Virus record (IMG/VR): IMGVR_UViG_3300042010_000040
Coordinates: 28,348-92,347 of that record
Length of the DNA stretch: 64,000 nt
Source of the DNA: a virus
Direction: 5' to 3' (one strand)
A model generated the notes under the pieces. The model was not told where the DNA came from and did not search any database. It saw nothing but the letters and a program-made list of their open reading frames with translations. The position numbers and the translations under genes are program-made. Below are positions 33,383 through 64,000 of this stretch, piece by piece (the stretch's first letter is position 1; every line of letters starts with the position of its first letter).

Positions 33383-33392
33383 GAGAACCCAA

Positions 33393-33548
33393 ATGCCCAT
33401 CATCCACCTACACACCTACCGTCTCCTGAAACAAATCCTTGAACATGCAGATAAGGTTGTGATAGTGTCGGTAAACACAGATGATGGGAAGCAAATGGCA
33501 TATACTTATGTGAAACGTAAACAAACTGAGAAGGGAGAGAAGAAATAA
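33393..33548 (+). CDS. Hypothetical protein
   Basis: AGGAG SD before ATG 33393. Confidence 0.5.
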   Translation: MPIIHLHTYRLLKQILEHADKVVIVSVNTDDGKQMAYTYVKRKQTEKGEKK

Positions 33549-33988: not shown

Positions 33989-34160
33989 CCCACAATTTCC
34001 GAGACAAAGACATAGACGAAATCTTCGTCATCCATTCACCAAACAACACTCTCCTCCACGTAAGCTATCTTGGCCCAACAGAGGAGACATTTTACACGAG
34101 GGCTGATATAGTGGCGATGTTGGACATTATTGATGGGAAGGAAGAGGGAGCGCTACGTAA

Positions 34161-34364
34161 ATGAAGATTAGTGAGTATCAGCAGGGTTTTGTTATTGGAT
34201 TGGTTCTAGGTGCAATAATGATTATAACGATGTGTAGTTATTTTATTATCCGTCCTATGCTAGCTTTGGAGAATACTAGAATGCAGCTCATTGAAGAATG
34301 TCAGAAAGTTTTACCAAGGAATCAAACCTGTGAACTGGTAGCTGTGCCTGAGGAAAAACCATGA
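34161..34364 (+). CDS. Small membrane protein
   Basis: One hydrophobic helix. Confidence 0.6.
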   Translation: MKISEYQQGFVIGLVLGAIMIITMCSYFIIRPMLALENTRMQLIEECQKVLPRNQTCELVAVPEEKP

Positions 34365-34663
34365 CCTATATTCTCTTGTGGTTCCTTTGTGCTTACTGCG
34401 CATATAAGCTACTCAAAAACTACGTCTCAGCCAACCTGCGACTAGTAGGCATCCCTGACGCTAGCATCGCTCAAGCTATGAGAAATGCCGCTAAGAAAGA
34501 CGATTCGATTGAAGAAATCTACAATGCTACGGACAATACAATCAACGCAGCATTTTGGACAGTGGTTTTAGTGGTGCATCTAGCTATTTGGCCTATTTGT
34601 TTGGTACAGTTGGTGGTGTGGCAGACAATAGATAAACAAGACTTTTCGGATTTTAGGGGTTGA
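34361..34663 (+). CDS. Membrane protein
   Basis: Two hydrophobic segments; ATGA overlap. Confidence 0.6.
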   Translation: MTYILLWFLCAYCAYKLLKNYVSANLRLVGIPDASIAQAMRNAAKKDDSIEEIYNATDNTINAAFWTVVLVVHLAIWPICLVQLVVWQTIDKQDFSDFRG

Positions 34664-34664
34664 T

Positions 34665-34856
34665 ATGCTTCAGATTAAAACAGATAATCATGGTACTTAC
34701 TGGATTGAACTAGATGGTGAGTGTATTCATGGGTGCCTTACAAAAGAATCCTCGTTGGTGTGGTTTAAGAGTTATCAAAAGGTATGGGATAGCGGCTATA
34801 AGTTTAAGACAGCCGAAGAAGAGGCTGAATTGGCTAGATCTTGGGAGGGCTTGTAA
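34665..34856 (+). CDS. Hypothetical protein
   Basis: Tight operon packing. Confidence 0.55.
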   Translation: MLQIKTDNHGTYWIELDGECIHGCLTKESSLVWFKSYQKVWDSGYKFKTAEEEAELARSWEGL

Positions 34857-35098
34857 TGATTACCCCAACATGGCATCTAGAGCAAGCTATTATGATGCTT
34901 GACAAGTGGTATAAATTTGCTGAAAATTCCTTAGCGCTGATTGACAAATACCCTGTAAAGTATAGGAAGCTTCAGCCACAACGACATAAACAGAATGCAG
35001 ACTGTAAGCGTAATGCTCTACACTGTAAAACGGCTGGACTTGTATGGCATGATCGATATAAGAGGCTATTAGACACACAAAGAGGTATGTTTAAGTGA
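34856..35098 (+). CDS. Hypothetical protein
   Basis: GGAGG SD; coupled start. Confidence 0.55.
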   Translation: MITPTWHLEQAIMMLDKWYKFAENSLALIDKYPVKYRKLQPQRHKQNADCKRNALHCKTAGLVWHDRYKRLLDTQRGMFK

Positions 35099-35298
35099 GT
35101 GACACAAGAGAGTGTGAATTCTGTAGAGATAGGCTAGAAGAGTTTGCAGAAGATGCTGTTGTCTGTGGAGCCTGTGACGGAACTAGATTATTGGGTGTTC
35201 GTGAATGCTTCTGTCACGCCTATGAACCTTCAGAATGTGGTTGTGAGGCTGATTGGTCAGATTATACAGAGATTGATTACTGTGAGGATGAAGAGTGA
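35095..35298 (+). CDS. Cys-rich hypothetical protein
   Basis: Several CxxC motifs; GTGA overlap. Confidence 0.55.
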   Translation: MSDTRECEFCRDRLEEFAEDAVVCGACDGTRLLGVRECFCHAYEPSECGCEADWSDYTEIDYCEDEE

Positions 35299-35807
35299 AA
35301 GTATGCTGTTCAAACGGTAAACCTTATGACTCTCTAACAGACTTCGAGCGACTGGGTGGGTGCTCAACCGATCAATGTGTAGGACCAATAGAGGTTGAAG
35401 ACTTTGATCTATTACTAACTGGTCTTGGAACATTCGATCCAAAAGACATACCGACAATTGAAGATCTTCTGGATTTCGATAGAGGTGTGCAGTCTGCTAT
35501 TGATGGACAAGATATACGAAAAGCCAAACTAGCACAATTTGGAAGTAGGCTTCAGAAAGAAATAGATCTATTAACAGTCTGTGGAACATTCAACACAGAC
35601 GAATGCATCAGTCACGAAGACTTTAGACATCTCTTCAACAAATCTGGTAGTTGGGAACAATGGATACTTTCACAAATTGAACAAGAGGGTGTTGAGAAAT
35701 ATAAAGCGTGGTATGCTAGGATGTCAGAAAGGTGTGATTTGCATAGTGATTTGATTGAAGCTCATAATAAATTATTTGGAGAGAAGGATGAAGCCACAGG
35801 AGATTGA
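35295..35807 (+). CDS. Hypothetical protein
   Basis: GAGGA SD; coupled. Confidence 0.6.
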   Translation: MKVCCSNGKPYDSLTDFERLGGCSTDQCVGPIEVEDFDLLLTGLGTFDPKDIPTIEDLLDFDRGVQSAIDGQDIRKAKLAQFGSRLQKEIDLLTVCGTFNTDECISHEDFRHLFNKSGSWEQWILSQIEQEGVEKYKAWYARMSERCDLHSDLIEAHNKLFGEKDEATGD

Positions 35808-36030
35808 GAAGATTAAGCAGTTGGATGTCAATGGGATAAACGGAACTATCCAACATCTGTTGATGAATCCTAACATTAATCAAATGCCGTATGCTGATGC
35901 TATCTATTATTTGCTACACAAAACACTTGACGAACGTGCATACTATGAGAAGATGTATCAGAAGTTCTTTAATGTGATTACATCGGCTGGACTTATGACT
36001 AATGAATTGCTTGAATTGGAGGAGAAATGA
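35788..36030 (+). CDS. Hypothetical protein
   Basis: GGAG SD. Confidence 0.55.
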   Translation: MKPQEIEKIKQLDVNGINGTIQHLLMNPNINQMPYADAIYYLLHKTLDERAYYEKMYQKFFNVITSAGLMTNELLELEEK

Positions 36031-36286
36031 TTACTTTATGGTTGATTGGTTGGGGATTTACAGTAAACTTCTGCACGCCAGAAGAAACCCTTAAGAACAA
36101 TACAATGTGGCAGAATGCTAAAAATGATTTGAGTTATATGTTTACTTGGCCATTACAACTAGGCACATTTTGCAGAAAAGTTTTTGTGAAATAAACCTTG
36201 CATAATAGATTGAAGTGTGGGAAGCTAGAGATGTTGGGAAAGTAAAGGTGTGGAAATTTAATATCAATTGAAAGTGAGGTGGTACT

Positions 36287-37093
36287 TTGGGAGCAAAATT
36301 GCGCAACTTCGTAGTTAACGTCGATGGACAAGATGTTGAAGTCAATCGTAAATCCACTAGGAAGACTCGTAACGGAGGTTTGCCACAGGAACAGAAGGAG
36401 AAGTTTATAAGGGAAGCTGCTGCAAAGATTGAATACATTAAGAAGTTCGTACCAACACCGTCACAAGAGCAAGCAATTGAGATTGCACGCAATAACACAC
36501 TAAGTTGGATTGTTGGTGTGAGTGGTTCTGGTAAAAGTACCTGCATTCTTTGGGATTACTGCCAAGAATATCTTCGGGATAACACCAAAAAGATTTATGT
36601 AATCAAAGGTGCTACCGAAGTAAGTATGGATAAGATTGGATTCCTCCCTTTTGGTTTGGATGAAAAGATGTCTGCACATATGGTGGCTAATCGGAAGATT
36701 CTTGAAGATTTCCTTGGGGCTGAAAAGGTTGCAGCAGACTTGAACAAGCGAATCTTTCTTCTTCCGCCAAATTATCTGCTTGGACAGACGCTGGAAGGAC
36801 TCATTCTCATTGAGGAGGCTCAGCAATTACAGCCCAACGTTCTGAAGTTGATTCTTGAACGTACAGGTGCTCGGGGAAGTCGTGTTTGCGTGGTTGGTGA
36901 TGCTAGTCAACTCTACACAGATGCAAAAGAGGCTAAGTTGCGTAATGGTTTGACTGACGGACTCAAGCGATTCTTTAACGAAGACATGTCGCCTAAGTAT
37001 CCAGATGTTGGTCATTTTGAGTTTAATATTGAAGATGTACAGCGTTCAGAAATTGTGAAAACTATTCTGCGTGCGTATGCTGATTATCAGTAG
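36287..37093 (+). CDS. phoH: PhoH-family ATPase
   Basis: GVSGSGKS Walker A, IGFLP, IEEAQ, GD..Q and DVQRS motifs. Confidence 0.9.
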   Translation: MGAKLRNFVVNVDGQDVEVNRKSTRKTRNGGLPQEQKEKFIREAAAKIEYIKKFVPTPSQEQAIEIARNNTLSWIVGVSGSGKSTCILWDYCQEYLRDNTKKIYVIKGATEVSMDKIGFLPFGLDEKMSAHMVANRKILEDFLGAEKVAADLNKRIFLLPPNYLLGQTLEGLILIEEAQQLQPNVLKLILERTGARGSRVCVVGDASQLYTDAKEAKLRNGLTDGLKRFFNEDMSPKYPDVGHFEFNIEDVQRSEIVKTILRAYADYQ

Positions 37094-37100
37094 GAGGTTT

Positions 37101-37868
37101 ATGAAGGAAATTAATGGGGTGAGAGTTGCATACAATGCCATAGATTGGACAGGTCATAAAGTTGGAAGACTTGTTGTAAAGAATATTGAAGGCAGGCATG
37201 CAACTCGGAGGACTTTAGTGTGGAATGCTGAATGTTCTTGTGGTAACACCACTAAAGTTACATCAGCCGAGTTGTCAGCTAATGACACTCAATCTTGTGG
37301 ATGTCTGCACTTAGAAGTAATCGCTGCTACGAATAAGGCGTTTGCAGAGAAGTATCAAACGCATGGAATGGCAGGAACTGTGGAACAGAAGGCTTGGAAA
37401 AGGATTAAACAGAGATGTCTTAATCCTAATTCATTAGAATATGAAGTTTACTCTAAGATTGGAATCTCTGATTCATTTGCTGAGAGTTTCATGAACTTCT
37501 ATAATGATATTGGACCAGTGCCGAGTGACCTTGTAGGGAGGGTTTCTGTAGATAGAAAAGAAAATTCACTAGGATATGTTGAAGGCAATGTCCGCTGGGC
37601 CAATGATGAAATGCAGTCAAGAAACAAGGGGATGTACACCAGTAACAAAAGTGGCGTTAATGGAGTAAGGTTGCATATTGGGGCTGATGGCAAAGAGTAT
37701 TGGTGTGCTAGTTGGTATCCGATATCAGGTAAACAAAAGAGTAAATATTTCTCTATACCTAAATATGGAGATGAATTAGCTTTCTTCGCGGCTTGTGAAT
37801 ATCGAAGTTTGATGATTGAACGTTTAAATTTGTTGGGTGCAGGTTATGCCCATGACCACGGTAAATGA
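37101..37868 (+). CDS. HNH/AP2 homing endonuclease
   Basis: W..ECSCG, SCGC, SVDR..N..GY..GNVRWA and AP2-like C-terminus. Confidence 0.85.
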   Translation: MKEINGVRVAYNAIDWTGHKVGRLVVKNIEGRHATRRTLVWNAECSCGNTTKVTSAELSANDTQSCGCLHLEVIAATNKAFAEKYQTHGMAGTVEQKAWKRIKQRCLNPNSLEYEVYSKIGISDSFAESFMNFYNDIGPVPSDLVGRVSVDRKENSLGYVEGNVRWANDEMQSRNKGMYTSNKSGVNGVRLHIGADGKEYWCASWYPISGKQKSKYFSIPKYGDELAFFAACEYRSLMIERLNLLGAGYAHDHGK

Positions 37869-37879
37869 GGAGTAATAAT

Positions 37880-38641
37880 ATGAGCGAAGAAACTTTTATC
37901 CCGATGTTCCCACCAAAGAACATTTTCACAACTGAAGTACGCGGACAACAACATACATACTACCTCACTGGTCCTATTACAGAACCTGAAAATTATGTAG
38001 ACTTGTGCAATATCCTACGCTCTAGTGGGCCACAAGACGAAATTTTGATCAGAATAAATAGTTCAGGCGGGTCTGTAGCAACAGAGCGGATGATTTGTAA
38101 TGCAATCGAAGAGTCTGAAGCAAATGTTGTAGGTTTTATTGAATATGCCTGCATGTCAGCGGCTACGACTGTATTCTTGGCATGTAAACAGCATGGCTGG
38201 GGTCCACACATCCAGTTCATGATTCATTGCGCGTGGTGGAGCTCTTATGGAAAAACTCCCGATATTAAGAGCCATACAGAGTTTGCTCACAAACAGATGG
38301 AAGAGGAAATTATTGCTACGTACAGCGGCCTGTTGGATGAATCAGAGCTAAAAGCATGTAATGATGGGAAAGAGTTCTGGTTTGGTGCAAAAGAGCTTGA
38401 ACAGCGCATGAAAAACTTTTATGAGTACCGAGATTCTCAACCCTGTGGTTGTGGCTCGCCTGACTGTGAAATCAATGCACGGCTTGCCGAGGAAGACGAA
38501 GAAGAGCCTGAATTTTCTTTGGAAGATATCATCGAAAAAGCTGTGCAGGCTGGTGTAACCAAAGCTCTAGCTGCTCGTGATGCAAAAGAAAAGAAAGCAG
38601 CACGACCTAAGAAACCAGAAGGCGGAGCTGTTTTGAAATAA
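37880..38641 (+). CDS. ClpP-like protease proteolytic subunit
   Basis: INSSGGSV, CMSAAT (Ser) and FMIH (His). Confidence 0.8.
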   Translation: MSEETFIPMFPPKNIFTTEVRGQQHTYYLTGPITEPENYVDLCNILRSSGPQDEILIRINSSGGSVATERMICNAIEESEANVVGFIEYACMSAATTVFLACKQHGWGPHIQFMIHCAWWSSYGKTPDIKSHTEFAHKQMEEEIIATYSGLLDESELKACNDGKEFWFGAKELEQRMKNFYEYRDSQPCGCGSPDCEINARLAEEDEEEPEFSLEDIIEKAVQAGVTKALAARDAKEKKAARPKKPEGGAVLK

Positions 38642-38645
38642 CTTG

Positions 38646-38674
38646 TTGACAACGCATGTGGAGGGCTTTAAACT
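38646..38674 (+). promoter_or_regulatory. sigma70 promoter
   Basis: TTGACA-17-TAAACT. Confidence 0.65.
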
Positions 38675-38710
38675 AGACTCCACTAACCCAAACACAAAGG
38701 AGATAATAAG

Positions 38711-38806
38711 ATGATCAGCACACAGGAAATCGAGGAACTCATCGCAGAACAACAAGCTGACCTTGCTGCACAGGAAAAGTCAGAGAATTCTGAGGAGGAA
38801 GAATGA
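38711..38806 (+). CDS. Acidic micro-protein (31 aa)
   Basis: AAGGAG SD just after the promoter. Confidence 0.5.
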   Translation: MISTQEIEELIAEQQADLAAQEKSENSEEEE

Positions 38807-38925
38807 ACTACTTTGACCAATTACACGAAGTTCCAGACGAAGACGAACACCTAGAACCAGAATTCAATATTGACCCTTATTGGAATTTAGAATTTGATCT
38901 GCACTACGCACAAGGAGAAATGTAA
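38803..38925 (+). CDS. Acidic micro-protein (40 aa)
   Basis: GAGGAGG SD; ATGA overlap. Confidence 0.5.
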   Translation: MNYFDQLHEVPDEDEHLEPEFNIDPYWNLEFDLHYAQGEM

Positions 38926-39209
38926 TGATAAACGATGTTTTTGAATGTGTTAATACTAAAGTGCGCAAAGAACTACAAGGTATCTATAAAGCGTACAATG
39001 TTGTACATGGAACAGTAACCGCAAAGGCAGAAAATAAAATGATCGTCTATAGCGTCGTTAAGTTGGACTTCGGCCACAAAACAAATGTTGGTGTATTTGA
39101 CACACAAGATAAAGCTAAGGCTTATCAGTCGAGTCTTGAGTTAGAGTTATTTGATAATAGCAATCTTTGTGGTATTAGTTTTGAGATTGAGGAGTGTGTA
39201 GTAGTATGA
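38925..39209 (+). CDS. Hypothetical protein
   Basis: AAGGAG SD; coupled. Confidence 0.6.
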   Translation: MINDVFECVNTKVRKELQGIYKAYNVVHGTVTAKAENKMIVYSVVKLDFGHKTNVGVFDTQDKAKAYQSSLELELFDNSNLCGISFEIEECVVV

Positions 39210-39343
39210 ATTACGAACATGATCAGGTAGAAGGCTTGGAGTCATCTTTGGAACATTGGATTTTGTCGGACGAACAAGATATGCGTGAAACATTTGGGGA
39301 TGATCTGGTGATTGCAGTCAAGGAGGCTTTAGTAGATGACTGA
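39206..39343 (+). CDS. Acidic micro-protein (45 aa)
   Basis: GAGGAG SD; ATGA overlap. Confidence 0.5.
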   Translation: MNYEHDQVEGLESSLEHWILSDEQDMRETFGDDLVIAVKEALVDD

Positions 39344-39455
39344 TTATGATCGCTGGTTGGAAGAGGGTGATTATTACTTAGATGAACTCTACGAACCGAA
39401 AGATAAATATGACGATTATGAGCCAAATGATTACCCTGATGAGGATTGTGATTAA
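39336..39455 (+). CDS. Asp/Tyr-rich micro-protein (39 aa)
   Basis: AGGAGG SD; fills the gap to the next ORF exactly. Confidence 0.5.
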   Translation: MTDYDRWLEEGDYYLDELYEPKDKYDDYEPNDYPDEDCD

Positions 39456-39664
39456 TGGAAGAACCCCTAGGTCCACTTTGTGGGAAAGTAATTAAAATCA
39501 TCCCTCACATACCCTACTACCTAGCTGACGGAAACGTTGTTCTAAAGAAGTGGAAGGAAGGTTTTGTAGACCGAATGGGGAATAAGGCAGAGCTTACGAA
39601 AGTGTTGTTTAGGACGAAGAAGAATAAAGAGAATGTTGTAGTTATTAGGGTTAGGTGGGAGTAG
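39455..39664 (+). CDS. Hypothetical protein
   Basis: GAGGA SD; coupled. Confidence 0.55.
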   Translation: MEEPLGPLCGKVIKIIPHIPYYLADGNVVLKKWKEGFVDRMGNKAELTKVLFRTKKNKENVVVIRVRWE

Positions 39665-39669
39665 AGAAG

Positions 39670-39951
39670 ATGACTGAGAAGAAAGAGATTAAAGTTTCTA
39701 CAGTTACATACGAACAATATATTGACTATGAGTATGTCGATGTCGCTAATTATTTTATTGTCTCTGCACTTCAGGAGTACATTTATTTTCATACGAATGA
39801 TAGAATGCTAGCTCAGTCAAAATGTAATGAGATTTTTGGGGTTGGTAAGTACACAGTAAAATCCTCCAAAATTACTAAGAGTAAGTCTAGACTAGAATCA
39901 GGAAATTTATCAGCTACAGGAACTAGTACCAGACGGGGGCAGTCTAAATGA
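39670..39951 (+). CDS. Hypothetical protein
   Basis: GGAG SD. Confidence 0.6.
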   Translation: MTEKKEIKVSTVTYEQYIDYEYVDVANYFIVSALQEYIYFHTNDRMLAQSKCNEIFGVGKYTVKSSKITKSKSRLESGNLSATGTSTRRGQSK

Positions 39952-40436
39952 AGTCCAAACACATCCAAATGTACATGAACATCGCACAAGTATTGGCAGA
40001 CACTTCAAGTGGTGTTAGACTCAAAGTAGGTGCGGTATTGGTAAGAGATAATAATATTCTTTCAACGGGATACAATGCTTTGCCCGCTGCTATTGATGGC
40101 CCACTAGAAGATAAAGTTTATAGTATGGGAGCAGGTGGTTGGATGGATGCGGACTCTTTTAAAGAAACCTATCCATATGAAGATGAGTTTGGCTATTATA
40201 AACTTGTTACCAAACCGGAGACACGTCATGCTGAACGCAGTGTGCTTATGAACCTGTGCAAAACTAATGAGTCTGCTGTAGGTGCGAGCCTCTTCGTCAC
40301 CGACGGATGTTGTAAATTCTGTGCAATTGATATTGTGGATGCTGGTATAACTGAGGTATACTACAAAAACGAATACAGGGACACGTCTGGAATAGAATAT
40401 CTAGAATCACAAGGTGTTAAAGTAATTAAAATTTAA
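39948..40436 (+). CDS. dCMP deaminase
   Basis: KVGAVLV, TGYN, HAE and CCKFC zinc motifs. Confidence 0.9.
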   Translation: MKSKHIQMYMNIAQVLADTSSGVRLKVGAVLVRDNNILSTGYNALPAAIDGPLEDKVYSMGAGGWMDADSFKETYPYEDEFGYYKLVTKPETRHAERSVLMNLCKTNESAVGASLFVTDGCCKFCAIDIVDAGITEVYYKNEYRDTSGIEYLESQGVKVIKI

Positions 40437-40447
40437 AGGAGAACAAA

Positions 40448-40873
40448 ATGCACACTAAATCTTCAAGTTGGCAAGACGATGAAATTATTGACACCAAGAA
40501 ACTCCAATTCTTTTCATTATGTCAAGTGATGAAGGCACTGGGTTATGAATACGTAGAATATTGCTCTTGTCCTTCTAGGTTTGAGAGCAAGCATTGGTCA
40601 AACAAAGGTCGTAAAGTGGTTAGCGTGTCCAACGCCATCCGCTTGCATAACGGTGATAATATCAAGTGTATTTTTGGTAGGCCACCAAGTAAATTGACTA
40701 TTCTCTCCTTCAATGACTATACGATTGCTAACGCAAAAGCTGCACGAGTGGTAAAGAAGGTCAAATTGCAATTCTGTCGACAGACAAACCAATTAATTTG
40801 TCAGGACCACCGTGTTCAGTTTGTATATGGAAGTTACTCTTATTTGTTTCTGAACAACAAGTACTCGGGGTGA
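40448..40873 (+). CDS. Hypothetical protein
   Basis: AAGGAG SD. Confidence 0.65.
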   Translation: MHTKSSSWQDDEIIDTKKLQFFSLCQVMKALGYEYVEYCSCPSRFESKHWSNKGRKVVSVSNAIRLHNGDNIKCIFGRPPSKLTILSFNDYTIANAKAARVVKKVKLQFCRQTNQLICQDHRVQFVYGSYSYLFLNNKYSG

Positions 40874-40876
40874 TGT

Positions 40877-41068
40877 ATGAGCAACAGAACCATCGCGTTG
40901 CTTTTTAGTAACTCACATTGGATGTGGTCTGAAGATTATCATTTCGGTAATCACAAACACCTTGGAGAGTTCGTTGAAGTATATTTTGCTAAAGGCTTCT
41001 CTGATCGTGAGGTTGATGAAGTGATTCGGGACTATTACTCTGATAATATTGAACATCTTTTTGACTAA
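40877..41068 (+). CDS. Hypothetical protein
   Basis: Operon packing; followed by a terminator. Confidence 0.55.
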   Translation: MSNRTIALLFSNSHWMWSEDYHFGNHKHLGEFVEVYFAKGFSDREVDEVIRDYYSDNIEHLFD

Positions 41069-41074
41069 TTCTAA

Positions 41075-41106
41075 AGCTCGGGACTTGACTGTCTCGGGCT
41101 TTTCTT
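41075..41106 (+). terminator. Intrinsic terminator
   Basis: AGCTCGGGAC/GTCTCGGGCT stem plus TTTCTT. Confidence 0.6.
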
Positions 41107-41125
41107 ATAAACTTAGGAAATCAAA

Positions 41126-41317
41126 ATGAGAAAATTTGAAGGTTTATCTGATTTCTTTAGAAACGCAACAGATGAAGAGAAACAAGAAGTTTATTCAGAA
41201 GTTATTGAGAAAGCTAACCAAGAACAACTTAAAGTAATTGAAAAGGCAAAGGAGATTGAGCTTGACAAAGAAACAGCTACACCGACAATTGCAACTGCTC
41301 CACAAAGACCTGACTAA
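41126..41317 (+). CDS. Small helical hypothetical protein
   Basis: AGGA SD; SDFFRNA..EEK..VY motif. Confidence 0.6.
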   Translation: MRKFEGLSDFFRNATDEEKQEVYSEVIEKANQEQLKVIEKAKEIELDKETATPTIATAPQRPD

Positions 41318-41497
41318 AGTAGAACTTAGGATGGAAAAGATATCTGATAAATTAGGTATCGACAGAGGACATGAATGGGTTGAGAGAACTCTTTGAGAAG
41401 TAGAGGAGCTTATTAAGATGTTTGACTCATCTTGTCCTGATTGTGGCCTAACTGGTCAACATAAGATGTCGTGTGATACGTAATACGAGGATGAACA

Positions 41498-41692
41498 ATG
41501 AACTTAGTTAAACAAAGGATTAAATGGGAGTATGAATATGCTTTCGGTAAGCCTGTAGAATTCCAAGCATTCTTGGATTATAAGAAGTATAGACACACAG
41601 AAGACTTTAGACTTAATTCAGGGCTGGAAGAATATTTTGAATATGTTATATCACTTGAAAACAAAATAGCTGAGCTTACTAGCTCAAGGTAG
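41498..41692 (+). CDS. Hypothetical protein
   Basis: GAGGA SD. Confidence 0.6.
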   Translation: MNLVKQRIKWEYEYAFGKPVEFQAFLDYKKYRHTEDFRLNSGLEEYFEYVISLENKIAELTSSR

Positions 41693-41724
41693 CTCTATCG
41701 AGCCCTAAACATAGGTAGAAGGAA

Positions 41725-42009
41725 ATGAAAACTTCCGTAATTAGTATTCTTGTATTTACAACGCTTCTCACAGGCTGTACACTCACACCTGTAAAGCAGA
41801 CCAATAGTGTCATCGTAGGTCCCGGAACATTCTATGCTAAATGGCAGAAGCAAGTGTTGAATGCTTGTTCTGATAAAGCAGCAGAAGTTGTTCTAAAACT
41901 CACGGCTGATAAATACAGGGAAGGAATTCTATTAACGGAAGAGCAGATTGTTATGATTCATGGGATGTTGGTTAGGAAGTGTTCTATGAATAGTGGGTTG
42001 GTTATATAA
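41725..42009 (+). CDS. Putative lipoprotein
   Basis: Signal peptide with LTGC lipobox. Confidence 0.6.
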   Translation: MKTSVISILVFTTLLTGCTLTPVKQTNSVIVGPGTFYAKWQKQVLNACSDKAAEVVLKLTADKYREGILLTEEQIVMIHGMLVRKCSMNSGLVI

Positions 42010-42165
42010 TTGGAGAGAAATATGAGTAAGAATGAAAGATGGTTCTTTGGGTTTGTTACCCTGTGGATTGTACTATGTGCAGGGAAGCCTGATTTGATCG
42101 ATGCACTCACTGTACGTGTTATGGGTGATCAAGCTGTTTACGAAAAAATGAAAGGAGAGTAGCAG

Positions 42166-42513
42166 ATGATTAGTAATTTGACACCACTAACAGATGAACA
42201 GAAGCAATTGGCACAGGTAGCCCGTCGAGAGAAGATTCTTGATGGTGAATCCCTACGACACGGTTGGATGGACGGGCAACACTGGCGTGATTTGGCTAAA
42301 AAGATGAACACCCGCCTTCCACAATCCTATCAGCCAGCTACTCAGACCAAATACATTCGAAAAGTAGCAAAGAAAGTTGGTGTGGATATTAAAGAGTGGA
42401 TTGAGAGTACCGGATGTGCTAATCTTACTGAAATTAACAATTTAAACCCAAATATCCCAGCATATGCCATGACAGGTTGGATGTTGGAATGGATTGACGA
42501 GTTTAAGAGCTAA
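42166..42513 (+). CDS. Hypothetical protein
   Basis: AAGGAG SD. Confidence 0.65.
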   Translation: MISNLTPLTDEQKQLAQVARREKILDGESLRHGWMDGQHWRDLAKKMNTRLPQSYQPATQTKYIRKVAKKVGVDIKEWIESTGCANLTEINNLNPNIPAYAMTGWMLEWIDEFKS

Positions 42514-42589
42514 TTTAGGTGCTTTTCCTGCATAAAATTTATAGAAAGTGCTTAAAACAGCCTATATTCAACACAGTGTGAGGATGGTC

Positions 42590-42618
42590 TTGACGTGTTG
42601 TAAAACACCGTATAAAAT
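42590..42618 (+). promoter_or_regulatory. sigma70 promoter
   Basis: TTGACG-17-TAAAAT. Confidence 0.6.
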
Positions 42619-42645
42619 ATGCAGGAAATCACTTTGGAGATTATC

Positions 42646-43107
42646 ATGATTAAAAGAATCTTAGCTCTCAGGTATGTATGCAAGAAATATGACTTAAAAT
42701 ACCACCTGAAATTCTTCGGCGACGAAGGGTGGCTTGCACCTGAAGAGAAGATTATCTGTGTCAGTTTGTTCCAAAAGCACTTCTATGAAACACTTTATCA
42801 TGAAATAGGGCACATGGTTGCAGAAAGGAGCCTAGGTTTTAAGCGGAAATATTTTAAAGCAAGGTGGTTTAGTCGTCTTCAGTTCGGTGACTATTATGAT
42901 GTGTTTGTAAGAATTGAGGAAGAAGCTAAAGCTAGTAAATTCGCTATGAGAGTGCTTAAGACTAAGGACAGGACTTATCTGAAGAACTCTTGGCATACAT
43001 ACACATCAACTGTTGCTCGGTTGATTCGTTCTGATGAGCTTGATGTTTATGTAAAAACAGTTGCAAAATATAGTGGATACTTTGAAAACAAATTGGAGAT
43101 TAAATAA
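42646..43107 (+). CDS. HEXXH metallopeptidase-like protein (ImmA/IrrE-like)
   Basis: LYHEIGH and EEEAKASKFA; GGAG SD before ATG 42646. Confidence 0.6.
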   Translation: MIKRILALRYVCKKYDLKYHLKFFGDEGWLAPEEKIICVSLFQKHFYETLYHEIGHMVAERSLGFKRKYFKARWFSRLQFGDYYDVFVRIEEEAKASKFAMRVLKTKDRTYLKNSWHTYTSTVARLIRSDELDVYVKTVAKYSGYFENKLEIK

Positions 43108-43108
43108 A

Positions 43109-43363
43109 ATGTTAGTTCTTATATATCTTATCGTTTCACTTATATTCGTATACATCAATGCTACAGCCTGTTATATTAGAGGAATGAAATATCCTTGGAG
43201 ACAAGATATTCCTCTGTGTCTTATCTGGCCTGTGGTTGTTCCCGTATGGATTATAAATCTGATTAATTCAGATGATCCTGAATGCTCACAATGTCATAAC
43301 AAAGCTTCTATTGGGCATAAAATGTCTTGTGGAAAGCGTTATAATAGGAAGAATAAACAATGA
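43109..43363 (+). CDS. Membrane protein with C-terminal Zn-finger-like motif
   Basis: Two hydrophobic segments; CSQC...HKMSC. Confidence 0.55.
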   Translation: MLVLIYLIVSLIFVYINATACYIRGMKYPWRQDIPLCLIWPVVVPVWIINLINSDDPECSQCHNKASIGHKMSCGKRYNRKNKQ

Positions 43364-43551
43364 TCATGGAGCATTCCTATGACAGAGAAGTGATCAAAGA
43401 CTTCATCCGCTGGATTAGCGATACGCATAAGTGCGCTGTCGTGAGCTTTCCGAATGAATTTGCAGCTAATAGTTATGTCAACTATCGTTTTGTCAATGTT
43501 TCAGAACTAGTGGAAGAGTTTATTGAAGGTGAAAAGCATGCAAATAATTAG
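43360..43551 (+). CDS. Hypothetical protein
   Basis: Coupled ORF. Confidence 0.55.
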   Translation: MIMEHSYDREVIKDFIRWISDTHKCAVVSFPNEFAANSYVNYRFVNVSELVEEFIEGEKHANN

Positions 43552-43915
43552 ATTAGATGAAAAAGGTCAGCAGATTAAACCTTGGCTAGCTACAGAAAGT
43601 ATTGTAATAACCAAAAAAGAAACAAACGTGAAAGTAGTAGAACGAAATAAGACTGTCGGATTCTTTGAGCGACTTTTCTTGCGCAAACATTACTCTAAAA
43701 TTATCGACAGTTGGGTAGAATCTGACAAAGGAACTTATCGTATTGGTGTAACTGAAGAATACGACGGATTGTTCTCTGGAAAAGTTAGAAGGAATACCTA
43801 CCACATGTCTTGTTTTCCGGGTGGTGACGACTATGCTTGGTATACAAAAGATTTGAATGAAGCTAAAGACAAATGTATCGAAGTGTTATGGAGGGCAACA
43901 AATGAATTGGTTTAA
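43538..43915 (+). CDS. Hypothetical protein
   Basis: Coupled ORF. Confidence 0.6.
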   Translation: MQIIRLDEKGQQIKPWLATESIVITKKETNVKVVERNKTVGFFERLFLRKHYSKIIDSWVESDKGTYRIGVTEEYDGLFSGKVRRNTYHMSCFPGGDDYAWYTKDLNEAKDKCIEVLWRATNELV

Positions 43916-44423
43916 GCGTATTTTCTGTGGTCAGGAAGAGTTCGGTGGTTATGTGGATCAGTGGGGGCTGCCTTCCGTGAAGAATCTTGTGCCGATACCT
44001 AAAGTGAAACCACCGAAACCCGATAAGGATATCTCTGAGCCTGTATTGTCGTTTGTCAAATGTGTTCAGGAAAACCCTAAGAGGTTTAAAGTGACCTATG
44101 ATTTTGAGTATTATGGGTGTGAAGTTAATAATGGTGTTGTGGGGATAAGTAAGAAGCCAACCACCTATAATTACTCGTTGGTAGACGTAATGACAGGGGA
44201 GAGTTGGTCTTTAACAAAAGAGATGTTATTTACCAGTTGCCGACAGGAGCGAAAACACACTTATAATCCAGAATGGTTGACAGCAGACGAAACAGAATAT
44301 TTGATTGATTCTGTCAAGACAATCTTCCAGAGTCGTAAAGATCGTAAGGCTAAGCTTCAACAAATTCGTAAAGAACGTCGTATTCGTGATGAGCGCAACC
44401 GTTTGAAGGAGATTTATAAATGA
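43902..44423 (+). CDS. Hypothetical protein
   Basis: GGAGG SD before ATG 43902. Confidence 0.65.
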   Translation: MNWFKRIFCGQEEFGGYVDQWGLPSVKNLVPIPKVKPPKPDKDISEPVLSFVKCVQENPKRFKVTYDFEYYGCEVNNGVVGISKKPTTYNYSLVDVMTGESWSLTKEMLFTSCRQERKHTYNPEWLTADETEYLIDSVKTIFQSRKDRKAKLQQIRKERRIRDERNRLKEIYK

Positions 44424-44650
44424 ATAATGATTTAGAGCGTGCAGTTTATAATATACTATGGGTTTGGTATCAATATAATTATACACATAAGAGCACAGAA
44501 GACTACTTCAGTCATGCTTGTATGGGTGCTGGAGAAAATGCAGCATTGTTTCTTGAACGGTTGGGCTATGGGCACGATGATGGTTGGGGGTTTGTACCTA
44601 ATCAGAGAGCAAAAGACTTGATGGCTAATGAACTGGAGATGGAAGAATGA
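44420..44650 (+). CDS. Hypothetical protein
   Basis: AAGGAG SD; ATGA overlaps at both ends. Confidence 0.6.
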   Translation: MNNDLERAVYNILWVWYQYNYTHKSTEDYFSHACMGAGENAALFLERLGYGHDDGWGFVPNQRAKDLMANELEMEE

Positions 44651-45483
44651 GCATTCAAATGCAAAACCAAACAATCATGTTGGGGAACCAATCCATATAC
44701 GTTTCGATTAAGCCGGGGAAGGGTGGTACTATTCCTCTGTTGATCATGAATGGCATTGGAGCGAATACAACTTTACTGACTCCTTTTGTCGAAGCTATGC
44801 ATGAAGCGAATCCTGATATCGAGATCATTACTTTCGATGTGCCCGGTTGTGGAGGTAGCTCTACTCCAAGTATACCGTACAGGTTTAGTGGTTTGGCTAG
44901 AACAGTAAGTCAGATGCTTGATTATCTTAACTATGCACAAGTTGATGTACTCGGTTTAAGTTGGGGTGGATTTTTGGCGTCCCAGTTTGCATATGACCAC
45001 CCTCAGCGCGGCAATAAACTAATTTTGTGTGCTACAGCAACAGGAGTTACATCCATCCCGCCAAGTTTGAAAGTACTTTCTCTGATGGCTTCTCCTAGAC
45101 GCTATACTGATTCGGCCTATATGATTGAAGTTGCACCTCTGATCTACGGTGGAAAATTCCAAACAGATCCTGAGCTAGCAATTAAGTATGCACAGAAGAT
45201 GGAAGCTAATAGGTCTGAAAATAAAGCTAACGCCACTGGATACAAGTTTCAACAGCTAGCAATTTGTTGGTGGAGCAGTTTGTGGATGCTTCCTTACATT
45301 AAACAGCCTACACTTTTGATTGGTGGTAGCGATGATCCAATCATTCCGTTGGTGAATATGAAGATTATGAAAGGGCTTATTCCTAATTCTAAACTTCATG
45401 TGGTGGATGATGGTCACCTTTTCCTTCTTTGTTCAACGGATGTTGTAACACCTATTATTAACGAGTTTTTGGAGAGTAAATAA
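44647..45483 (+). CDS. phaZ: Intracellular mcl-poly(3-hydroxyalkanoate) depolymerase (alpha/beta hydrolase)
   Basis: PLLIMNGIGAN, FDVPG.GGSSTP..PYRF, MLDYL.Y, GLSWGG lipase box, MASPRRY, DDPIIPLVNM and DDGHLFL match Pseudomonas PhaZ motifs along the whole length. Confidence 0.88.
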   Translation: MSIQMQNQTIMLGNQSIYVSIKPGKGGTIPLLIMNGIGANTTLLTPFVEAMHEANPDIEIITFDVPGCGGSSTPSIPYRFSGLARTVSQMLDYLNYAQVDVLGLSWGGFLASQFAYDHPQRGNKLILCATATGVTSIPPSLKVLSLMASPRRYTDSAYMIEVAPLIYGGKFQTDPELAIKYAQKMEANRSENKANATGYKFQQLAICWWSSLWMLPYIKQPTLLIGGSDDPIIPLVNMKIMKGLIPNSKLHVVDDGHLFLLCSTDVVTPIINEFLESK

Positions 45484-45716
45484 TGAAACTAGAGCCTCCT
45501 AAACCACCGCCAAGGCGTTGTATGCAAGGCTACACTTGGGTAAATGAGTGGGAACTTGTGGATTGGTACACTGATATGGGTAAGCTTTATGATAAGCGCA
45601 GTATCTATGAAGACCGCTGGGGTTGGTTCTTCAATCTGTTTAAGAGAGTCTATCAAATTAAGCTTGAAAAGAGTCTTATGAAGAATCGAATGGTGTGTAC
45701 GGAGTGGCCTAGATGA
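45483..45716 (+). CDS. Hypothetical protein
   Basis: GGAG SD; coupled. Confidence 0.55.
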   Translation: MKLEPPKPPPRRCMQGYTWVNEWELVDWYTDMGKLYDKRSIYEDRWGWFFNLFKRVYQIKLEKSLMKNRMVCTEWPR

Positions 45717-45925
45717 ATGATTTCAATAGTTGGGAAGAAGTAGCTGCATACCTACAAGCTAATCAATACAATGCAGTGGATGTTGGCGGTGTATTCTGGT
45801 ATTCAGAAACTCATAGTTGCTGTTATGATGATTGTCAGTGTGAGGAAGATTATAATTCTGTGGTAGAAACTTTAGCATCTATTCAATATATGTGTGATGG
45901 ACTGCATGAGGTATGGAAACGATGA
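45713..45925 (+). CDS. Hypothetical protein
   Basis: Coupled ORF. Confidence 0.55.
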   Translation: MNDFNSWEEVAAYLQANQYNAVDVGGVFWYSETHSCCYDDCQCEEDYNSVVETLASIQYMCDGLHEVWKR

Positions 45926-46143
45926 GTTCTGAACGCTGCTCATGTGGAGCTAGGGAGAAGAATAAGTGTAACAAGGAGAGTGAACACAAGACAGGGAAGA
46001 TGTGTTTGAAACCTGAAGACACACTATTCATTAACTTTAGAGACACCTTAAGTGGTGGTTTCTGTGCTGACATAGATTATGAATCACAAGCTTGGCAGAA
46101 AGTGTTGAGTGATTGGGAAGGGTTTAAAATTGAGGAGAAGTAA
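45913..46143 (+). CDS. Hypothetical protein
   Basis: Coupled ORF. Confidence 0.55.
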   Translation: METMSSERCSCGAREKNKCNKESEHKTGKMCLKPEDTLFINFRDTLSGGFCADIDYESQAWQKVLSDWEGFKIEEK

Positions 46144-46626
46144 ATGTTAGTTGAAATGGACAAGGAGATGCTGTCTGCACTAATCAAGGGTTGTGATCCA
46201 GCCTATGAGATTATGGATCATCCGTTGATTAAGTCTAAAGGTTATTATTCAGGTGGGCACAGTGACAGATGGAACTGGAACCATTCTTTTGGAGATTGTA
46301 CAGAGGAACAGTTGTGGGAGACGTATCAACTTCTACAGAATCCTGCACCTTACAAAGATAAATCAAAAGTTTATGGTGGTCCTTGCTCCATTAATGATCT
46401 GTATGACAGGTTGTATGCACTTGAAGGGGTCACTTGGGTTTATATTGAAGACCACAACAACCTAGACGTTACAATCACAGTTGAGGGTGGGAGTGATGAA
46501 CAGATTGCTAATGTACTGTGTAACAGCTTACCTATGATGTGTAGGACTCTTGGTAATTACCAAGTCTCAACTATGTTGGTAGGGTATTTGATTACTTATC
46601 GTATTTACAGGAAGATGCAAGAATGA
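46144..46626 (+). CDS. Protein whose C-terminal half resembles a baseplate J segment
   Basis: LY..L..LEGV..V.I...VEGG.DEQIAN.L....P......GN..VS aligns by eye with 3510..4949. Confidence 0.6.
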   Translation: MLVEMDKEMLSALIKGCDPAYEIMDHPLIKSKGYYSGGHSDRWNWNHSFGDCTEEQLWETYQLLQNPAPYKDKSKVYGGPCSINDLYDRLYALEGVTWVYIEDHNNLDVTITVEGGSDEQIANVLCNSLPMMCRTLGNYQVSTMLVGYLITYRIYRKMQE

Positions 46627-46868
46627 ATCAAACAATTGAAGAACGTATGTTGAATATAGAACAAGAGCTATCAGAGATTAGGAAGGAATTGGAGGAGAGT
46701 TTGGCGAGGTATAAGAACAAACATTATCCATTTAATGCTGACTTAGATCCTATGACTGCTACAGGATATGGTCTGAGATACCTTGCTCAAGAAGCTAGTA
46801 TAGACTTTGATGCACTGGATACTGATGAACAAGTGAGGAAGTCTTTAAATGAAACCACTAATCCTTAA
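46623..46868 (+). CDS. Small protein with baseplate wedge core motif
   Basis: DPMTATGYGLRYLA...DTDEQVR versus DPNSATGIALDNLV...ETDEELR in baseplate J. Confidence 0.55.
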   Translation: MNQTIEERMLNIEQELSEIRKELEESLARYKNKHYPFNADLDPMTATGYGLRYLAQEASIDFDALDTDEQVRKSLNETTNP

Positions 46869-47349
46869 AACCCCAGAAGGGCTATATGTCTGTGAAATAC
46901 CAATTGAGAATGAACCAGAAGACGGGGCATCTGATAGAGAATGGTGGATATGGGCAGCTTGTGGTGTTGGTAGAACACCAACAGAGGCTTATGATAATTG
47001 GCTGAAGGATTGGGAGGAGGTGGTGTGAATATTAAACAACAGCTATTTGAAGATTGGTACGTAACAAACAGGTCTGGTCCTGATATAGATGTTTATGACG
47101 ACCTTAAGCTTGGGGACGATGGTGAGTACTATTATCAAGAAACTTATTGGATGTATCGGGCGTTTAAAGCTGGGCAAGTGCTGAGAGTGTATGAAGAATG
47201 ACACAAGAAGAAATTGATGAAGACGAAGATATGTATTATTGCTGGGAGGAACAGGTCTGGTTAGAGAATAGGTTGTTCTATGAATATGATTTAGAACATT
47301 TGGAAGAATTAAATAAGCGAGAGCGACACCCAACGAAGGAGAAACGTAG

Positions 47350-47547
47350 ATGAGAATCTTAAGTAGCGAACATGCTGATGTTATTAGAAAACAGATTGTT
47401 GATGAACACCTAATGCCTACATACGAGAGGTTTGGAAGTGGTGTTTATGAAGCACACTTTGAAATTAATGGTATCAGGTATGATTTCACTAAATATGAAG
47501 GGTTGTCTTCGGTTTGTTATGTTGAAGTGATAGAGGAGGAAGTATGA
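47350..47547 (+). CDS. Hypothetical protein
   Basis: AAGGAG SD. Confidence 0.55.
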   Translation: MRILSSEHADVIRKQIVDEHLMPTYERFGSGVYEAHFEINGIRYDFTKYEGLSSVCYVEVIEEEV

Positions 47548-47750
47548 ATAACTGGAAACCAAGGGCACCACTAACACAAGAAGAAATAAACCAACTGCTG
47601 TCTTCTATCCAACTAAGGTCAACACCAGAAGACCCATGTGCTAAATATCCTGAGTTGTTGAAGATGAAAAGTAGGTATCGTGTTCAGTTTGGAGAGGGGC
47701 AACTGTACAAAGATTATAAACTTGCACAACAAAGGTTAGGGAAAGAATGA
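47544..47750 (+). CDS. Hypothetical protein
   Basis: GGAGG SD; coupled. Confidence 0.55.
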   Translation: MNNWKPRAPLTQEEINQLLSSIQLRSTPEDPCAKYPELLKMKSRYRVQFGEGQLYKDYKLAQQRLGKE

Positions 47751-48298
47751 CAGTTAAAACAATTGAATCTAGACACGAAGGTCTTACGGTCTTCGATGTT
47801 GAGACAGGAGAACTCCTTTACTATAAGAAGCCTAAAGCTGTAAAGGTGACAAGCTTTGACAAGTATGTTGGGATTGATACCAAATATCCCTACGAGTGTG
47901 TAACCAAGGACAGTCTGATTGAGTGCTTGTCTATAATGGATGGGTACATCAAGGATGAACCTTACCTTACTTCTCACAACCTTGTAGATGCACTGAACCA
48001 AAGTCTTATGACTCCTTTGGAGATGAGGTTAATCACTCATGTGGTTATGAACCTTGCAGGCTGGAATATCTATATCGGCACAGTCAAGGATTTATGCTCT
48101 TGTGGTATTACAGAGGCAAACATATCTAGATTGATTAAGGGACTAGAGCCTAATGGGGTTAGAGTAAAGAGCAGGAACAAACCTTACAGGGGAGATATAG
48201 TATTAGAAGTAAGCCCACACTATGGCTGGAAAGGAGATATTAGGTATCGAGAAATGAGGATGAATAGTTGGTATGGTGGTGAAATGTCATTGGACTAG
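47747..48298 (+). CDS. Putative winged-helix / RepL-like DNA-binding protein
   Basis: VDxETGE-like N-terminus (DVETGE), NISRLIKGL helix and SPHYGWKG C-terminal motif. Confidence 0.4.
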   Translation: MTVKTIESRHEGLTVFDVETGELLYYKKPKAVKVTSFDKYVGIDTKYPYECVTKDSLIECLSIMDGYIKDEPYLTSHNLVDALNQSLMTPLEMRLITHVVMNLAGWNIYIGTVKDLCSCGITEANISRLIKGLEPNGVRVKSRNKPYRGDIVLEVSPHYGWKGDIRYREMRMNSWYGGEMSLD

Positions 48299-48412
48299 AA
48301 ACGAACTCATCATTGGTGATGAATTGATACACCTACAAGCCCCTATTTCTGGGGCTGTTTGCATCTACTATACTTATTATACTTTAAGTAAGAGAAATAT
48401 TAATGGGGTTAT

Positions 48413-49405
48413 ATGGCTGATTTGAAAGACTTAATTGAAGATGGGGTGATGAAATATGATGGGTATGAAGGAACAGTATTTGGAAATCTAACAGTTGTAG
48501 GTTGGAATGGTTTATTCCGAAACCCAAAGAAATATATTGTATCTTGCTCTGTATGTAAAGAAGATCCCGAACTTCATGGAGAAGGTTTGTTTGCTATGTC
48601 CAAAGGACATTTAGTAAGAGGTTGTATTCCGTGTGGTTGTACAGATAAATGTAACTGGACAGAGGACCAGTACAAAGTAAGGGTAAATAGAGCATGTATT
48701 GAAAGAGGCTTAGTCTTTAAGGGTTGGTCAGGAGAATTTATTAACGCAAATAAAACAAAAGTGTTAGTGGACTGTCCAGATCATGGCGAGTTTTGGACAA
48801 TGACTATAAGCTATTTACTCATAGAAGGTGGTTACAAAGGTTGTGCTGGATGCTTTGCTATTCGCATGGGAGACTATAAAAGAAAAGATGATCAAGTTAT
48901 GATTGATACGTTTATGGCTTCTGGTGGTTATTCAGAAGGCACTAAGTTTACAAGAAGTGAAAGATTAGATAAACACGGACACTTAAAGTATTGGCACATG
49001 GAATGTCCTGACTGTAATACTTCAGGTGAGGGACATATAGTGGGGCTGTATAAGGGTAGTAGGTCTTGTGCCTGTGCAAATAGTAGACCTCAAGAGACAT
49101 ACATTAATCTGATTAAGGACGGAGAGAACATCATTGCCATAAAGTTTGGTGTGGCTAATACCTCACTAGAAAGGATTAAAAGGCAAAATTATACTTCTAT
49201 GTACGAACTTACTAATTATGGTGTTTGGACGTATCCTACAGTTAGACAGTGCAGGGATGCTGAGATAACTTGCAAGCGCAACTTAGAAACTGGTGTTTTA
49301 AGTAAGTTAGAAATGCCCGATGGATATACTGAAACTACTTTCCCCTCAAATATTGATCGAGTTATCGATATCTTTGAAGAGAATGGTGGTGTGAGAAATA
49401 TCTAA
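48413..49405 (+). CDS. Putative homing endonuclease (Zn-ribbons plus GIY-YIG-like C-terminus)
   Basis: CSVC, CPDHG, CPDC; YINLI...IKFGVAN..R and DGYTET. Confidence 0.7.
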   Translation: MADLKDLIEDGVMKYDGYEGTVFGNLTVVGWNGLFRNPKKYIVSCSVCKEDPELHGEGLFAMSKGHLVRGCIPCGCTDKCNWTEDQYKVRVNRACIERGLVFKGWSGEFINANKTKVLVDCPDHGEFWTMTISYLLIEGGYKGCAGCFAIRMGDYKRKDDQVMIDTFMASGGYSEGTKFTRSERLDKHGHLKYWHMECPDCNTSGEGHIVGLYKGSRSCACANSRPQETYINLIKDGENIIAIKFGVANTSLERIKRQNYTSMYELTNYGVWTYPTVRQCRDAEITCKRNLETGVLSKLEMPDGYTETTFPSNIDRVIDIFEENGGVRNI

Positions 49406-49420
49406 ACCCCTGTCAGAATT

Positions 49421-49449
49421 AGAAGCCCTCCTTGTGAGGGTTTTCTTTT
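49421..49449 (+). terminator. Intrinsic terminator ending the plus-strand region
   Basis: AAGCCCTC/GAGGGTTT stem plus TCTTTT. Confidence 0.75.
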
Positions 49450-63767: not shown

Positions 63768-64000
63768 ACAAACCTACTCGCTGATACTCCTCATCCATAC
63801 ACATAGCAAACGGCTCAAGCTCAGCTTTCTTGATATTGCATGGAAGCTTATCTAGTACAGATAATAGCTCAGATGTCTTATGAATCTTTCCTGTGCGGAA
63901 GGTGTATTCTGAGCAAAGCGCTTTGAAGTGAGCATAGAGCCATTGGTAATTGGCTGAGGTTGAGCGACACCACTTGATAGAGGGGTGCCCAGAATGCGTG

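Follow-up and report, generated by a model that had tools for sequence, protein, structure and literature searches.

Mobilization of intracellular medium-chain-length (mcl) polyhydroxyalkanoate (PHA) has so far been attributed to Pseudomonas enzymes only (PMC12504323). The reference enzyme is PhaZKT from Pseudomonas putida KT2440/KT2442, a member of the family TIGR02240. Its catalytic triad consists of Ser102, Asp221 and His248, and a lid domain formed by residues 133–192 covers the active site (PMC12504323). Deletion, as distinct from substitution, of either the FNGIG loop (residues 34–38) or the hydrophobic hinge YYWQLF (residues 190–195) abolishes the activity of PhaZKT (PMC12504323). According to the same report, the S184F mutation increased the esterase activity and decreased the depolymerase activity, and the substrate of the enzyme is almost exclusively mcl-PHA (PMC12504323). 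In this study, we describe a phaZ-like gene located at positions 44647..45483 (+) of a 64,000-nucleotide stretch of viral DNA, designated here as the window, which corresponds to bases 28348 to 92347 of the IMG/VR record IMGVR_UViG_3300042010_000040 (92,347 bp). Unless otherwise noted, positions are those of the window.

Two other PHA depolymerases are relevant for comparison. PhaZBd, the mcl-PHA depolymerase of Bdellovibrio bacteriovorus, converts the PHA of the prey into carbon and energy, and increases the predation efficiency and fitness (PMC7174725). The enzyme is of the extracellular type and comes from a predator that is itself a cell. We regard it as a functional analogy to the phage enzyme only and claim no homology. 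The polyhydroxybutyrate (PHB) depolymerase gene (phaZ) of a Gloeobacter prophage was proposed as a candidate auxiliary metabolic gene (AMG) for carbon utilization (bioRxiv 10.64898/2026.04.06.716669). By its description, this gene is of the short-chain PHB type and resides in a cyanobacterial prophage, which sets it apart from the mcl-type gene on a lytic-type phage in the window. It was the sole mention of a virus-borne phaZ found in the literature searched, and the full-text searches found no description of a phage-encoded mcl-PHA depolymerase. The gene in the window belongs to a known enzyme family in a known AMG role-class, while the phage-type lineage to which it belongs was not found described in the literature searched.

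The window protein (hereafter phage PhaZ) is like PhaZKT in the positions of the catalytic triad, the GxSWGG elbow, the NGIG loop, the presence of a lid and the lack of a signal peptide. The genetic context is different. PhaZKT is encoded between phaC1 and phaC2, whereas the window PhaZ is encoded by a phage without phaC1, phaC2, phaD or phasins. Proteins of the same clade are encoded, likewise as solitary genes, on other uncultured phages (loci L002-L009 and L183-L227), which include complete jumbo genomes of 229, 284 and 307 kb, and most of these carriers are unrelated to this phage by TerL.

Assignment of the window protein to the PhaZ family

The gene is an uninterrupted open reading frame (ORF) with an ATG start and a TAA stop, and encodes a 278-aa alpha/beta hydrolase with a helical lid at about residues 141–207. 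The protein scored 320.2 bits against TIGR02240, the NCBIfam equivalog for poly(3-hydroxyalkanoate) depolymerase, covering profile positions 5–264 of 276, and the curated cut-off of this family is 250.6 bits. The runner-up was PcaD (3-oxoadipate enol-lactonase), with 89 bits against a cut-off of 256. None of the 14 well-known genomes used as controls exceeded the TIGR02240 cut-off, and therefore, the cut-off is not trivially permissive. All nine of the non-canonical copies that were tested passed it with 291–415 bits (six IMG/VR phage copies and the copies from phage RP12, P. lini and P. serbica). Pfam assigned the protein to the generic Abhydrolase_1 fold only, and the PHROGs label was 'esterase/lipase'.

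The N-terminus of phage PhaZ is polar, and the maximal Kyte-Doolittle value in a 19-residue span was 1.25; neither a signal peptide nor a transmembrane segment was found in the hydrophobicity profile. The protein looks cytoplasmic from its sequence. The GC content of the gene (0.415) is nearly the same as that of the window (0.414), and the Pseudomonas genomes with the nearest cellular homologues are much higher, at about 0.6.

A first-pass annotation, made from the letters of the DNA without database searches, had called the gene a phage-encoded PhaZ with intact catalytic motifs, no signal peptide and AT-rich, phage-like codons. These points agree with the results above, and the four motifs were found as NGIGAN (residues 35–40), GLSWGG (103–108, with Ser105), DDPIIP (229–234) and DDGHLFL (254–260). 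The annotation had also claimed a full-length co-linear match to the mcl-PHA depolymerases. This claim stood as far as the family is concerned, but the specificity for mcl-PHA is less sure, with 52% identity, about half the profile score and an altered hinge. The 278-aa protein is a PhaZ-family serine hydrolase with intact catalytic residues, and is predicted to be catalytically competent.

Catalytic triad, lid and predicted structure

For pairwise comparison, a PhaZ with the KT2440 numbering (L035; FNGIG 34–38, S102, D221, H248 and YYWQLF 190–195) was used as the reference, and phage PhaZ was 52% identical to it over the full length. Ser105, Asp230 and His257 aligned column for column with Ser102, Asp221 and His248 of PhaZKT. 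Across 117 homologues, Asp230 and His257 were invariant, and Ser105 was nearly invariant. The oxyanion loop is MNGIG (34–38) in phage PhaZ and FNGIG in PhaZKT, a single conservative change.

The AlphaFold2 model of phage PhaZ (predicted local distance difference test score, 96.5) has an alpha/beta hydrolase core with a helical lid, in which the lid helices (141–207) are inserted after the strand at residues 122–128. The lid is of full length and shares 29 of 63 residues (46%) with the KT-numbered PhaZ. Outside the lid, phage PhaZ has a 3-aa insertion at residues 52–54 and is devoid of the canonical 14-aa C-terminal tail. From the columns that are invariant in the canonical PhaZ proteins, phage PhaZ retains 123 of 198, and from those that are, in addition, rare in the outgroup families, it retains 21 of 59. 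The PhaZ-specific residues that are retained and rare in the outgroups include T9, Q15, F80, M90, D117, K142, F171, K184 and M238.

No solved structure of the PhaZ family was found by sequence and fold searches of the PDB. The nearest PDB folds are generic esterases and lactonases with template modelling scores of about 0.8, including an enol-lactonase and an esterase that degrades acyl-homoserine lactones (AHL). These matches do not settle the substrate, because the closest folds are generic alpha/beta hydrolases. Judged from the sequence, specificity for mcl-PHA is likely; we do not regard it as established, because the lid is remodelled in the region that tunes the access of the substrate.

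Phylogeny and distribution of the phage-type PhaZ

A large protein search detected more than 2000 homologues. The first 90 or so were 56–91% identical to the window protein, and many of them are encoded on contigs of 78–92 kb, the size of this phage. A scan of cellular genome contigs with the single protein detected no relative, but an alignment-based query did find some, and the nearest named cellular proteins were Pseudomonas PhaZ with 51–55% identity. The phaZ of Pseudomonas sp. D1-36 lies in a classical phaC1-phaZ-phaC2-phaD cluster, and the canonical placement between phaC1 and phaC2 was verified in the locus L028, consistent with what the first-pass annotation had stated for the chromosomal gene.

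A careful tree was calculated from 39 sequences under LG+C20, with ultrafast bootstrap and SH-aLRT supports (given in this order). The core PhaZ clade (98/99) consisted of the canonical enzymes of Pseudomonadaceae (99/96) and a phage-type clade (99/97). The latter contained the window protein, all phage sequences of the core clade and two cellular copies. The two clades were also sisters in a quick tree of 122 sequences; in another quick tree, of 81 sequences, the canonical clade was nested inside the phage diversity with weak support. In the careful tree, the comparison with host PhaZ proteins that the first-pass annotation had proposed placed the window protein in the sister clade of the enzymes encoded in the canonical pha clusters, with no clustering with generic esterases. 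The subgroup of the window protein, carried by phages of about 85–93 kb with a GC content of 0.39–0.41, forms a deep branch with 51–61% identity to the other phage groups.

The two cellular copies of the phage-type clade were observed in Pseudomonas. P. lini CC269 has an orphan phage-type PhaZ on contig 5 (L010:7001-7810) as a second copy besides its canonical phaZ (L061). The orphan lies next to polysaccharide genes; the proteins encoded around it are an NAD-epimerase, a glycosyltransferase and a UDP-galactopyranose mutase, together with a PAS histidine kinase and a further alpha/beta hydrolase. In P. serbica IT-P366, the phage-type PhaZ (L126:7001-7789) is on a contig labelled 'plasmid unnamed1'.

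Among cultured phages, the only homologues were the ORF269 proteins of the Ralstonia jumbo phages RP12 and RP31, annotated as 'esterase/lipase', with 46% identity over 98% of the length. Unlike the window PhaZ, they fell outside the core PhaZ clade and grouped with representative proteins; the RP12 protein scored 291 bits against TIGR02240. Ralstonia, the host of these phages, is known for short-chain PHB rather than mcl-PHA.

With an alignment as the query, 53 viral phaZ loci were detected in IMG/VR, and no PhaC was encoded within 6 kb of phaZ in any of the 53. The loci fell into GC groups of about 0.40, 0.48–0.53 and 0.55–0.60. The carriers include complete genomes with terminal repeats (283,622, 228,597, 90,791, 103,827 and 85,776 bp) and genomes of 307,129 and 53,993 bp rated as 100% complete. 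Only two of the ten carrier records tested had a TerL similar to that of this phage. The loci are spread over at least six phage types that are unrelated to one another. A search across the phage lineages for a partner gene travelling with phaZ found none; the 'families' that the lineages had in common were solely antisense ORFs within phaZ itself.

Selection on phaZ and its accessory status

In eight sibling IMG/VR phages, the PhaZ protein was 63–92% identical to that of the window, and the flanking ORFs come and go. The only gene of the neighbourhood kept in all eight was phaZ itself, with the siblings being defined as phaZ carriers. Within the clade of the window protein (orthologues of 63–92% identity), the pairwise ratios of nonsynonymous to synonymous substitution rates (dN/dS) were 0.08–0.15, at synonymous divergences from 0.6 to saturation. 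The gene is under purifying selection in phages.

The gene is also accessory. Two relatives lacking PhaZ have a TerL 94–97% identical to that of this phage. Against these two (TerL 94% and 97%), the DNA of the phaZ region matched only in short fragments of 71–79% identity, and no clean boundary of an insertion or deletion of phaZ was definable from the comparison with the closest PhaZ-less relatives.

One sibling, IMGVR_UViG_3300041407_000094 (L006/L249; 81,122 bp), encodes a PhaZ 89% identical to that of the window, while its TerL is only 52% identical. This difference indicates module exchange or recombination between distinct phages of the group. In addition, at 43373–43408, 45930–46137 and 46850, contigs from other rhizosphere runs depart abruptly from the window after a perfect match; these points mark module boundaries between co-occurring phage variants flanking phaZ.

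Proposed role during infection

No match to PhaC_N was found in the entire 92,347-bp genome, which extends the first-pass observation that phaC is absent from the window, and the whole phage genome likewise gave no match to Pseudomonas-type phasins or AMP-binding acyl-CoA ligases. The position between phaC1 and phaC2, which is a trait of the chromosomal gene and not of the enzyme, is not the case in the phage. As the phage contributes neither a PhaC nor a phasin nor an AMP-binding ligase, the enzyme must work on a substrate made by the host and supply the pathways of the host.

We propose, as a moderately favoured explanation, that phaZ is a fuel-type AMG that taps the PHA store of the host during infection; the substrate, the expression, the host genus and the benefit are what we infer. 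During infection, the gene would be translated together with the adjacent genes of the early/middle block. The enzyme would bind to the host PHA granules and hydrolyse the polyester to (R)-3-hydroxyalkanoic acids, which the acyl-CoA synthetase and beta-oxidation of the host may turn into acetyl-CoA, reducing power (NADH) and ATP. These products could then sustain phage replication in carbon-loaded, nutrient-limited rhizosphere cells. The steps by acyl-CoA synthetase and beta-oxidation are established knowledge of the Pseudomonas PHA cycle, and PHA can form a large share of the dry mass in nutrient-limited pseudomonads. PhaZBd of Bdellovibrio provides a functional precedent for such use as a fuel. 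The first-pass annotation had already suggested an AMG of this kind. The location on a phage, the purifying selection and the standing without phaC agree with that suggestion, but the fit with the nearby phoH, which it had added, did not hold, as described below.

A wider proposal, which is more tentative, is that Pseudomonas phages of the rhizosphere keep an old PhaZ lineage, sister to the chromosomal pha-cluster enzyme, and pass it between phages of at least six unrelated types (54–307 kb), that raiding of the host polyester is general, and that the altered hinge is an adaptation by which the enzyme escapes host regulation. If true, the phage-borne PhaZ lineage would be a new class of AMG tapping a storage polymer, the first one aimed at a carbon-storage polymer granule, and would represent a general, so far undescribed phage strategy. 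The success of rhizosphere phages would then be tied to the carbon-storage state of the host. The phage PhaZ proteins may also be useful, as natural variants with different lid hinges, for depolymerase engineering in bioplastic recycling.

Several observations weigh against the fuel proposal. The identity of phage PhaZ to the canonical Pseudomonas PhaZ is 51–55%, and its 320 bits against TIGR02240 are about half of the 612 bits of the canonical members. The cut-off of this family is generous, and even the homologue of Ralstonia phage RP12 passes it (291 bits) though it is outside the core clade. The hinge of the lid is YKFQQL in place of YYWQLF, with three of the six residues being different, and a 6-aa insertion precedes it beside the position of S184. 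Thirteen residues that are invariant in the canonical enzymes are replaced in essentially all phage forms; W201, F204, G206 and W243 are among the canonical residues replaced in this way. In the hinge, the residues that differ in essentially all phage forms are W and F. The phage-type copies of P. lini and P. serbica stand outside pha clusters. Furthermore, phaZ is dispensable, as ten relatives by TerL (50–97% identity), nine of them at least 94% complete, have no PhaZ. Finally, the host is deduced from relatedness only.

Many of these observations are what would be expected if the protein were a PhaZ-derived esterase that has drifted from PHA to some other ester of the host and serves an end unconnected with the carbon store. 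Soluble esters, lipid esters, acyl-homoserine lactones, enol-lactones and acylated metabolites would be candidate substrates. The insertion is next to the residue position that tunes the ester versus PHA activity in PhaZKT, many of the replaced canonical-invariant residues are in the lid, the chromosomal members of the phage-type clade are not in pha clusters, the nearest solved structures are the generic esterases, enol-lactonase and AHL-degrading esterase mentioned above, and both PHROGs and RefSeq label the family only as 'esterase/lipase'. However, the protein passes the PhaZ equivalog cut-off, while the next families reach only about one-third of theirs. It is a strongly supported sister of bona fide PhaZ and not of the esterase families, and it keeps a full-length lid with 46% identity. 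In addition, PhaZKT is reported to act almost exclusively on mcl-PHA (PMC12504323), which suggests that the ancestral state was specialized. On this balance, we consider a drifted esterase unlikely, although it is the strongest of the alternatives.

Next in likelihood, and also improbable in our estimation, is that PHA is degraded for a purpose other than fuel. The enzyme might clear bulky granules that take up room in the cytoplasm, release or disable proteins bound to the granules (for example PhaF, a phasin that binds DNA), or block the stress tolerance that the host draws from PHA turnover. The sequence evidence for this explanation is the same as that for the use as a fuel, and nothing in the sequence separates the two. 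The gene is located among small genes of the early/middle, host-takeover type and not among the genes of nucleotide metabolism, and the phage has no enzyme to use the monomers. On the other side, the Bdellovibrio precedent is nutritional, and phaZ occurs in phages of very different kinds, jumbo phages among them, which points to a general resource benefit.

It is very improbable that phaZ is a recently acquired neutral passenger without function in the phage: the gene is accessory, absent from close relatives and located in a mosaic region, but its dN/dS is 0.08–0.15 at synonymous divergence up to saturation, its GC content (0.415) is fully adjusted to the phage, its catalytic residues are invariant or nearly so, and it is kept while the flanking genes turn over.

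Carrier phage, host and habitat

The carrier is a complete lytic-type myovirus. It encodes TerL, portal, prohead protease, tail sheath, tape measure, baseplate wedge and tail fibre proteins, and CheckV rated the completeness of the record as 100%. The first 163 bp or so (100–163) of the record recur at its end (record positions 1–163 and 92184–92347, the latter corresponding to about 63837–64000 of the window). This recurrence reflects either a direct terminal repeat of short length or, for a circular or permuted genome, an overlap from the assembly, and is consistent with the CheckV completeness; IMG/VR classes the record as 'linear' despite it.

When TerL, sheath and portal were compared with 50,697 phage records, the top matches listed were all from Pseudomonas phages, with 43–51% identity, and the hosts of these phages are environmental or clinical Pseudomonas. 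The closest cultured relative is vB_PsaM_M1, whose host is Pseudomonas sp. ZM01. Its GC content is 0.419, as compared with 0.409 for this phage, and the two have a common early gene order of phoH, ClpP-like protease, dCMP deaminase and endonuclease. The low GC content (0.41) might seem to speak against a Pseudomonas host, but this objection was rejected in view of the value for this cultured Pseudomonas phage. A megablast search with 4 kb around phaZ against the same 50,697 records gave no match. A search of 400 Gammaproteobacteria genomes at the class level gave five matches at E<=1e-40, which were uninformative on the host.

When words were sampled from the 10-kb stretch around phaZ, at least one-quarter of them were present in each of seven runs of rhizosphere metagenomes, from seven different studies; this DNA may itself stem from two of these runs. 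An identical phaZ is carried by contigs from further rhizosphere runs, and no joint skipping phaZ was found in the contigs of four rhizosphere runs. No RNA run was listed among those containing the 10-kb region. Because the nearest cultured phages listed are all Pseudomonas phages and the habitat is the rhizosphere, the host is most likely a rhizosphere Pseudomonas.

Signs of intervening elements were observed in the terL region of related phages. In IMGVR_UViG_3300025728_000009 (L224; 91,285 bp), the TerL at about 83817–85738 of that record aligned with the window TerL in three pieces (residues 11–38, 38–450 and 448–489) with gaps between them, which suggests that terL is interrupted in this phage, for example by introns, inteins or homing endonucleases. 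In vB_PsaM_M1, a homing endonuclease and an intron-associated endonuclease are annotated beside terL and the portal gene.

Gene neighbourhood of phaZ

The gene is tightly packed with its neighbours, and the overlaps on both sides are in line with the translational coupling that the first-pass annotation had described. Upstream, the TGA stop of a 76-aa ORF (44420..44650, +) overlaps the phaZ ATG as ATGA, and downstream, the ATG of a 77-aa ORF (45483..45716, +) overlaps the phaZ TAA as TAATG. GGAGA is located 8 nt upstream of the phaZ ATG. Neither flanking ORF is conserved in the eight related phages compared. All three genes are in a hypervariable accessory region (40877..48298, +) of about 25 small ORFs, which is bounded by the conserved dCMP deaminase/DUF7390 genes on one side and the endonuclease gene on the other.

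This region is a part of an early/middle gene block (33288..49444, +), whose gene order is syntenic with that of vB_PsaM_M1. The block contains phoH (36287–37093, +; Pfam PhoH, 90.9 bits), 7.5 kb upstream of phaZ, as well as a ClpP-like gene (37865–38641, +), a dCMP deaminase gene (39948–40436, +) and an endonuclease gene (48413–49405, +), 3 kb from phaZ, and a terminator-like hairpin at 49422–49444 ends it. A link between phoH and phaZ was considered and rejected: phoH belongs to the conserved early block and to the core genes of the group, is not tied to phaZ, and is present in vB_PsaM_M1, which has no PhaZ.

Two other ORFs were observed in the comparison with vB_PsaM_M1. Between phoH and the ClpP-like gene, a 265-aa ORF (37071–37868, +) has a C-terminal AP2 domain (Pfam AP2, 30.6 bits, just under the cut-off), and vB_PsaM_M1 has no gene at this position; the ORF is probably an insertion of the homing-endonuclease type. 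A 415-aa ORF on the opposite strand (31684–32931, −) matched solely phrog_4756, and at the corresponding place in vB_PsaM_M1, a gene product of about this size is annotated as a 'DNA polymerase'.

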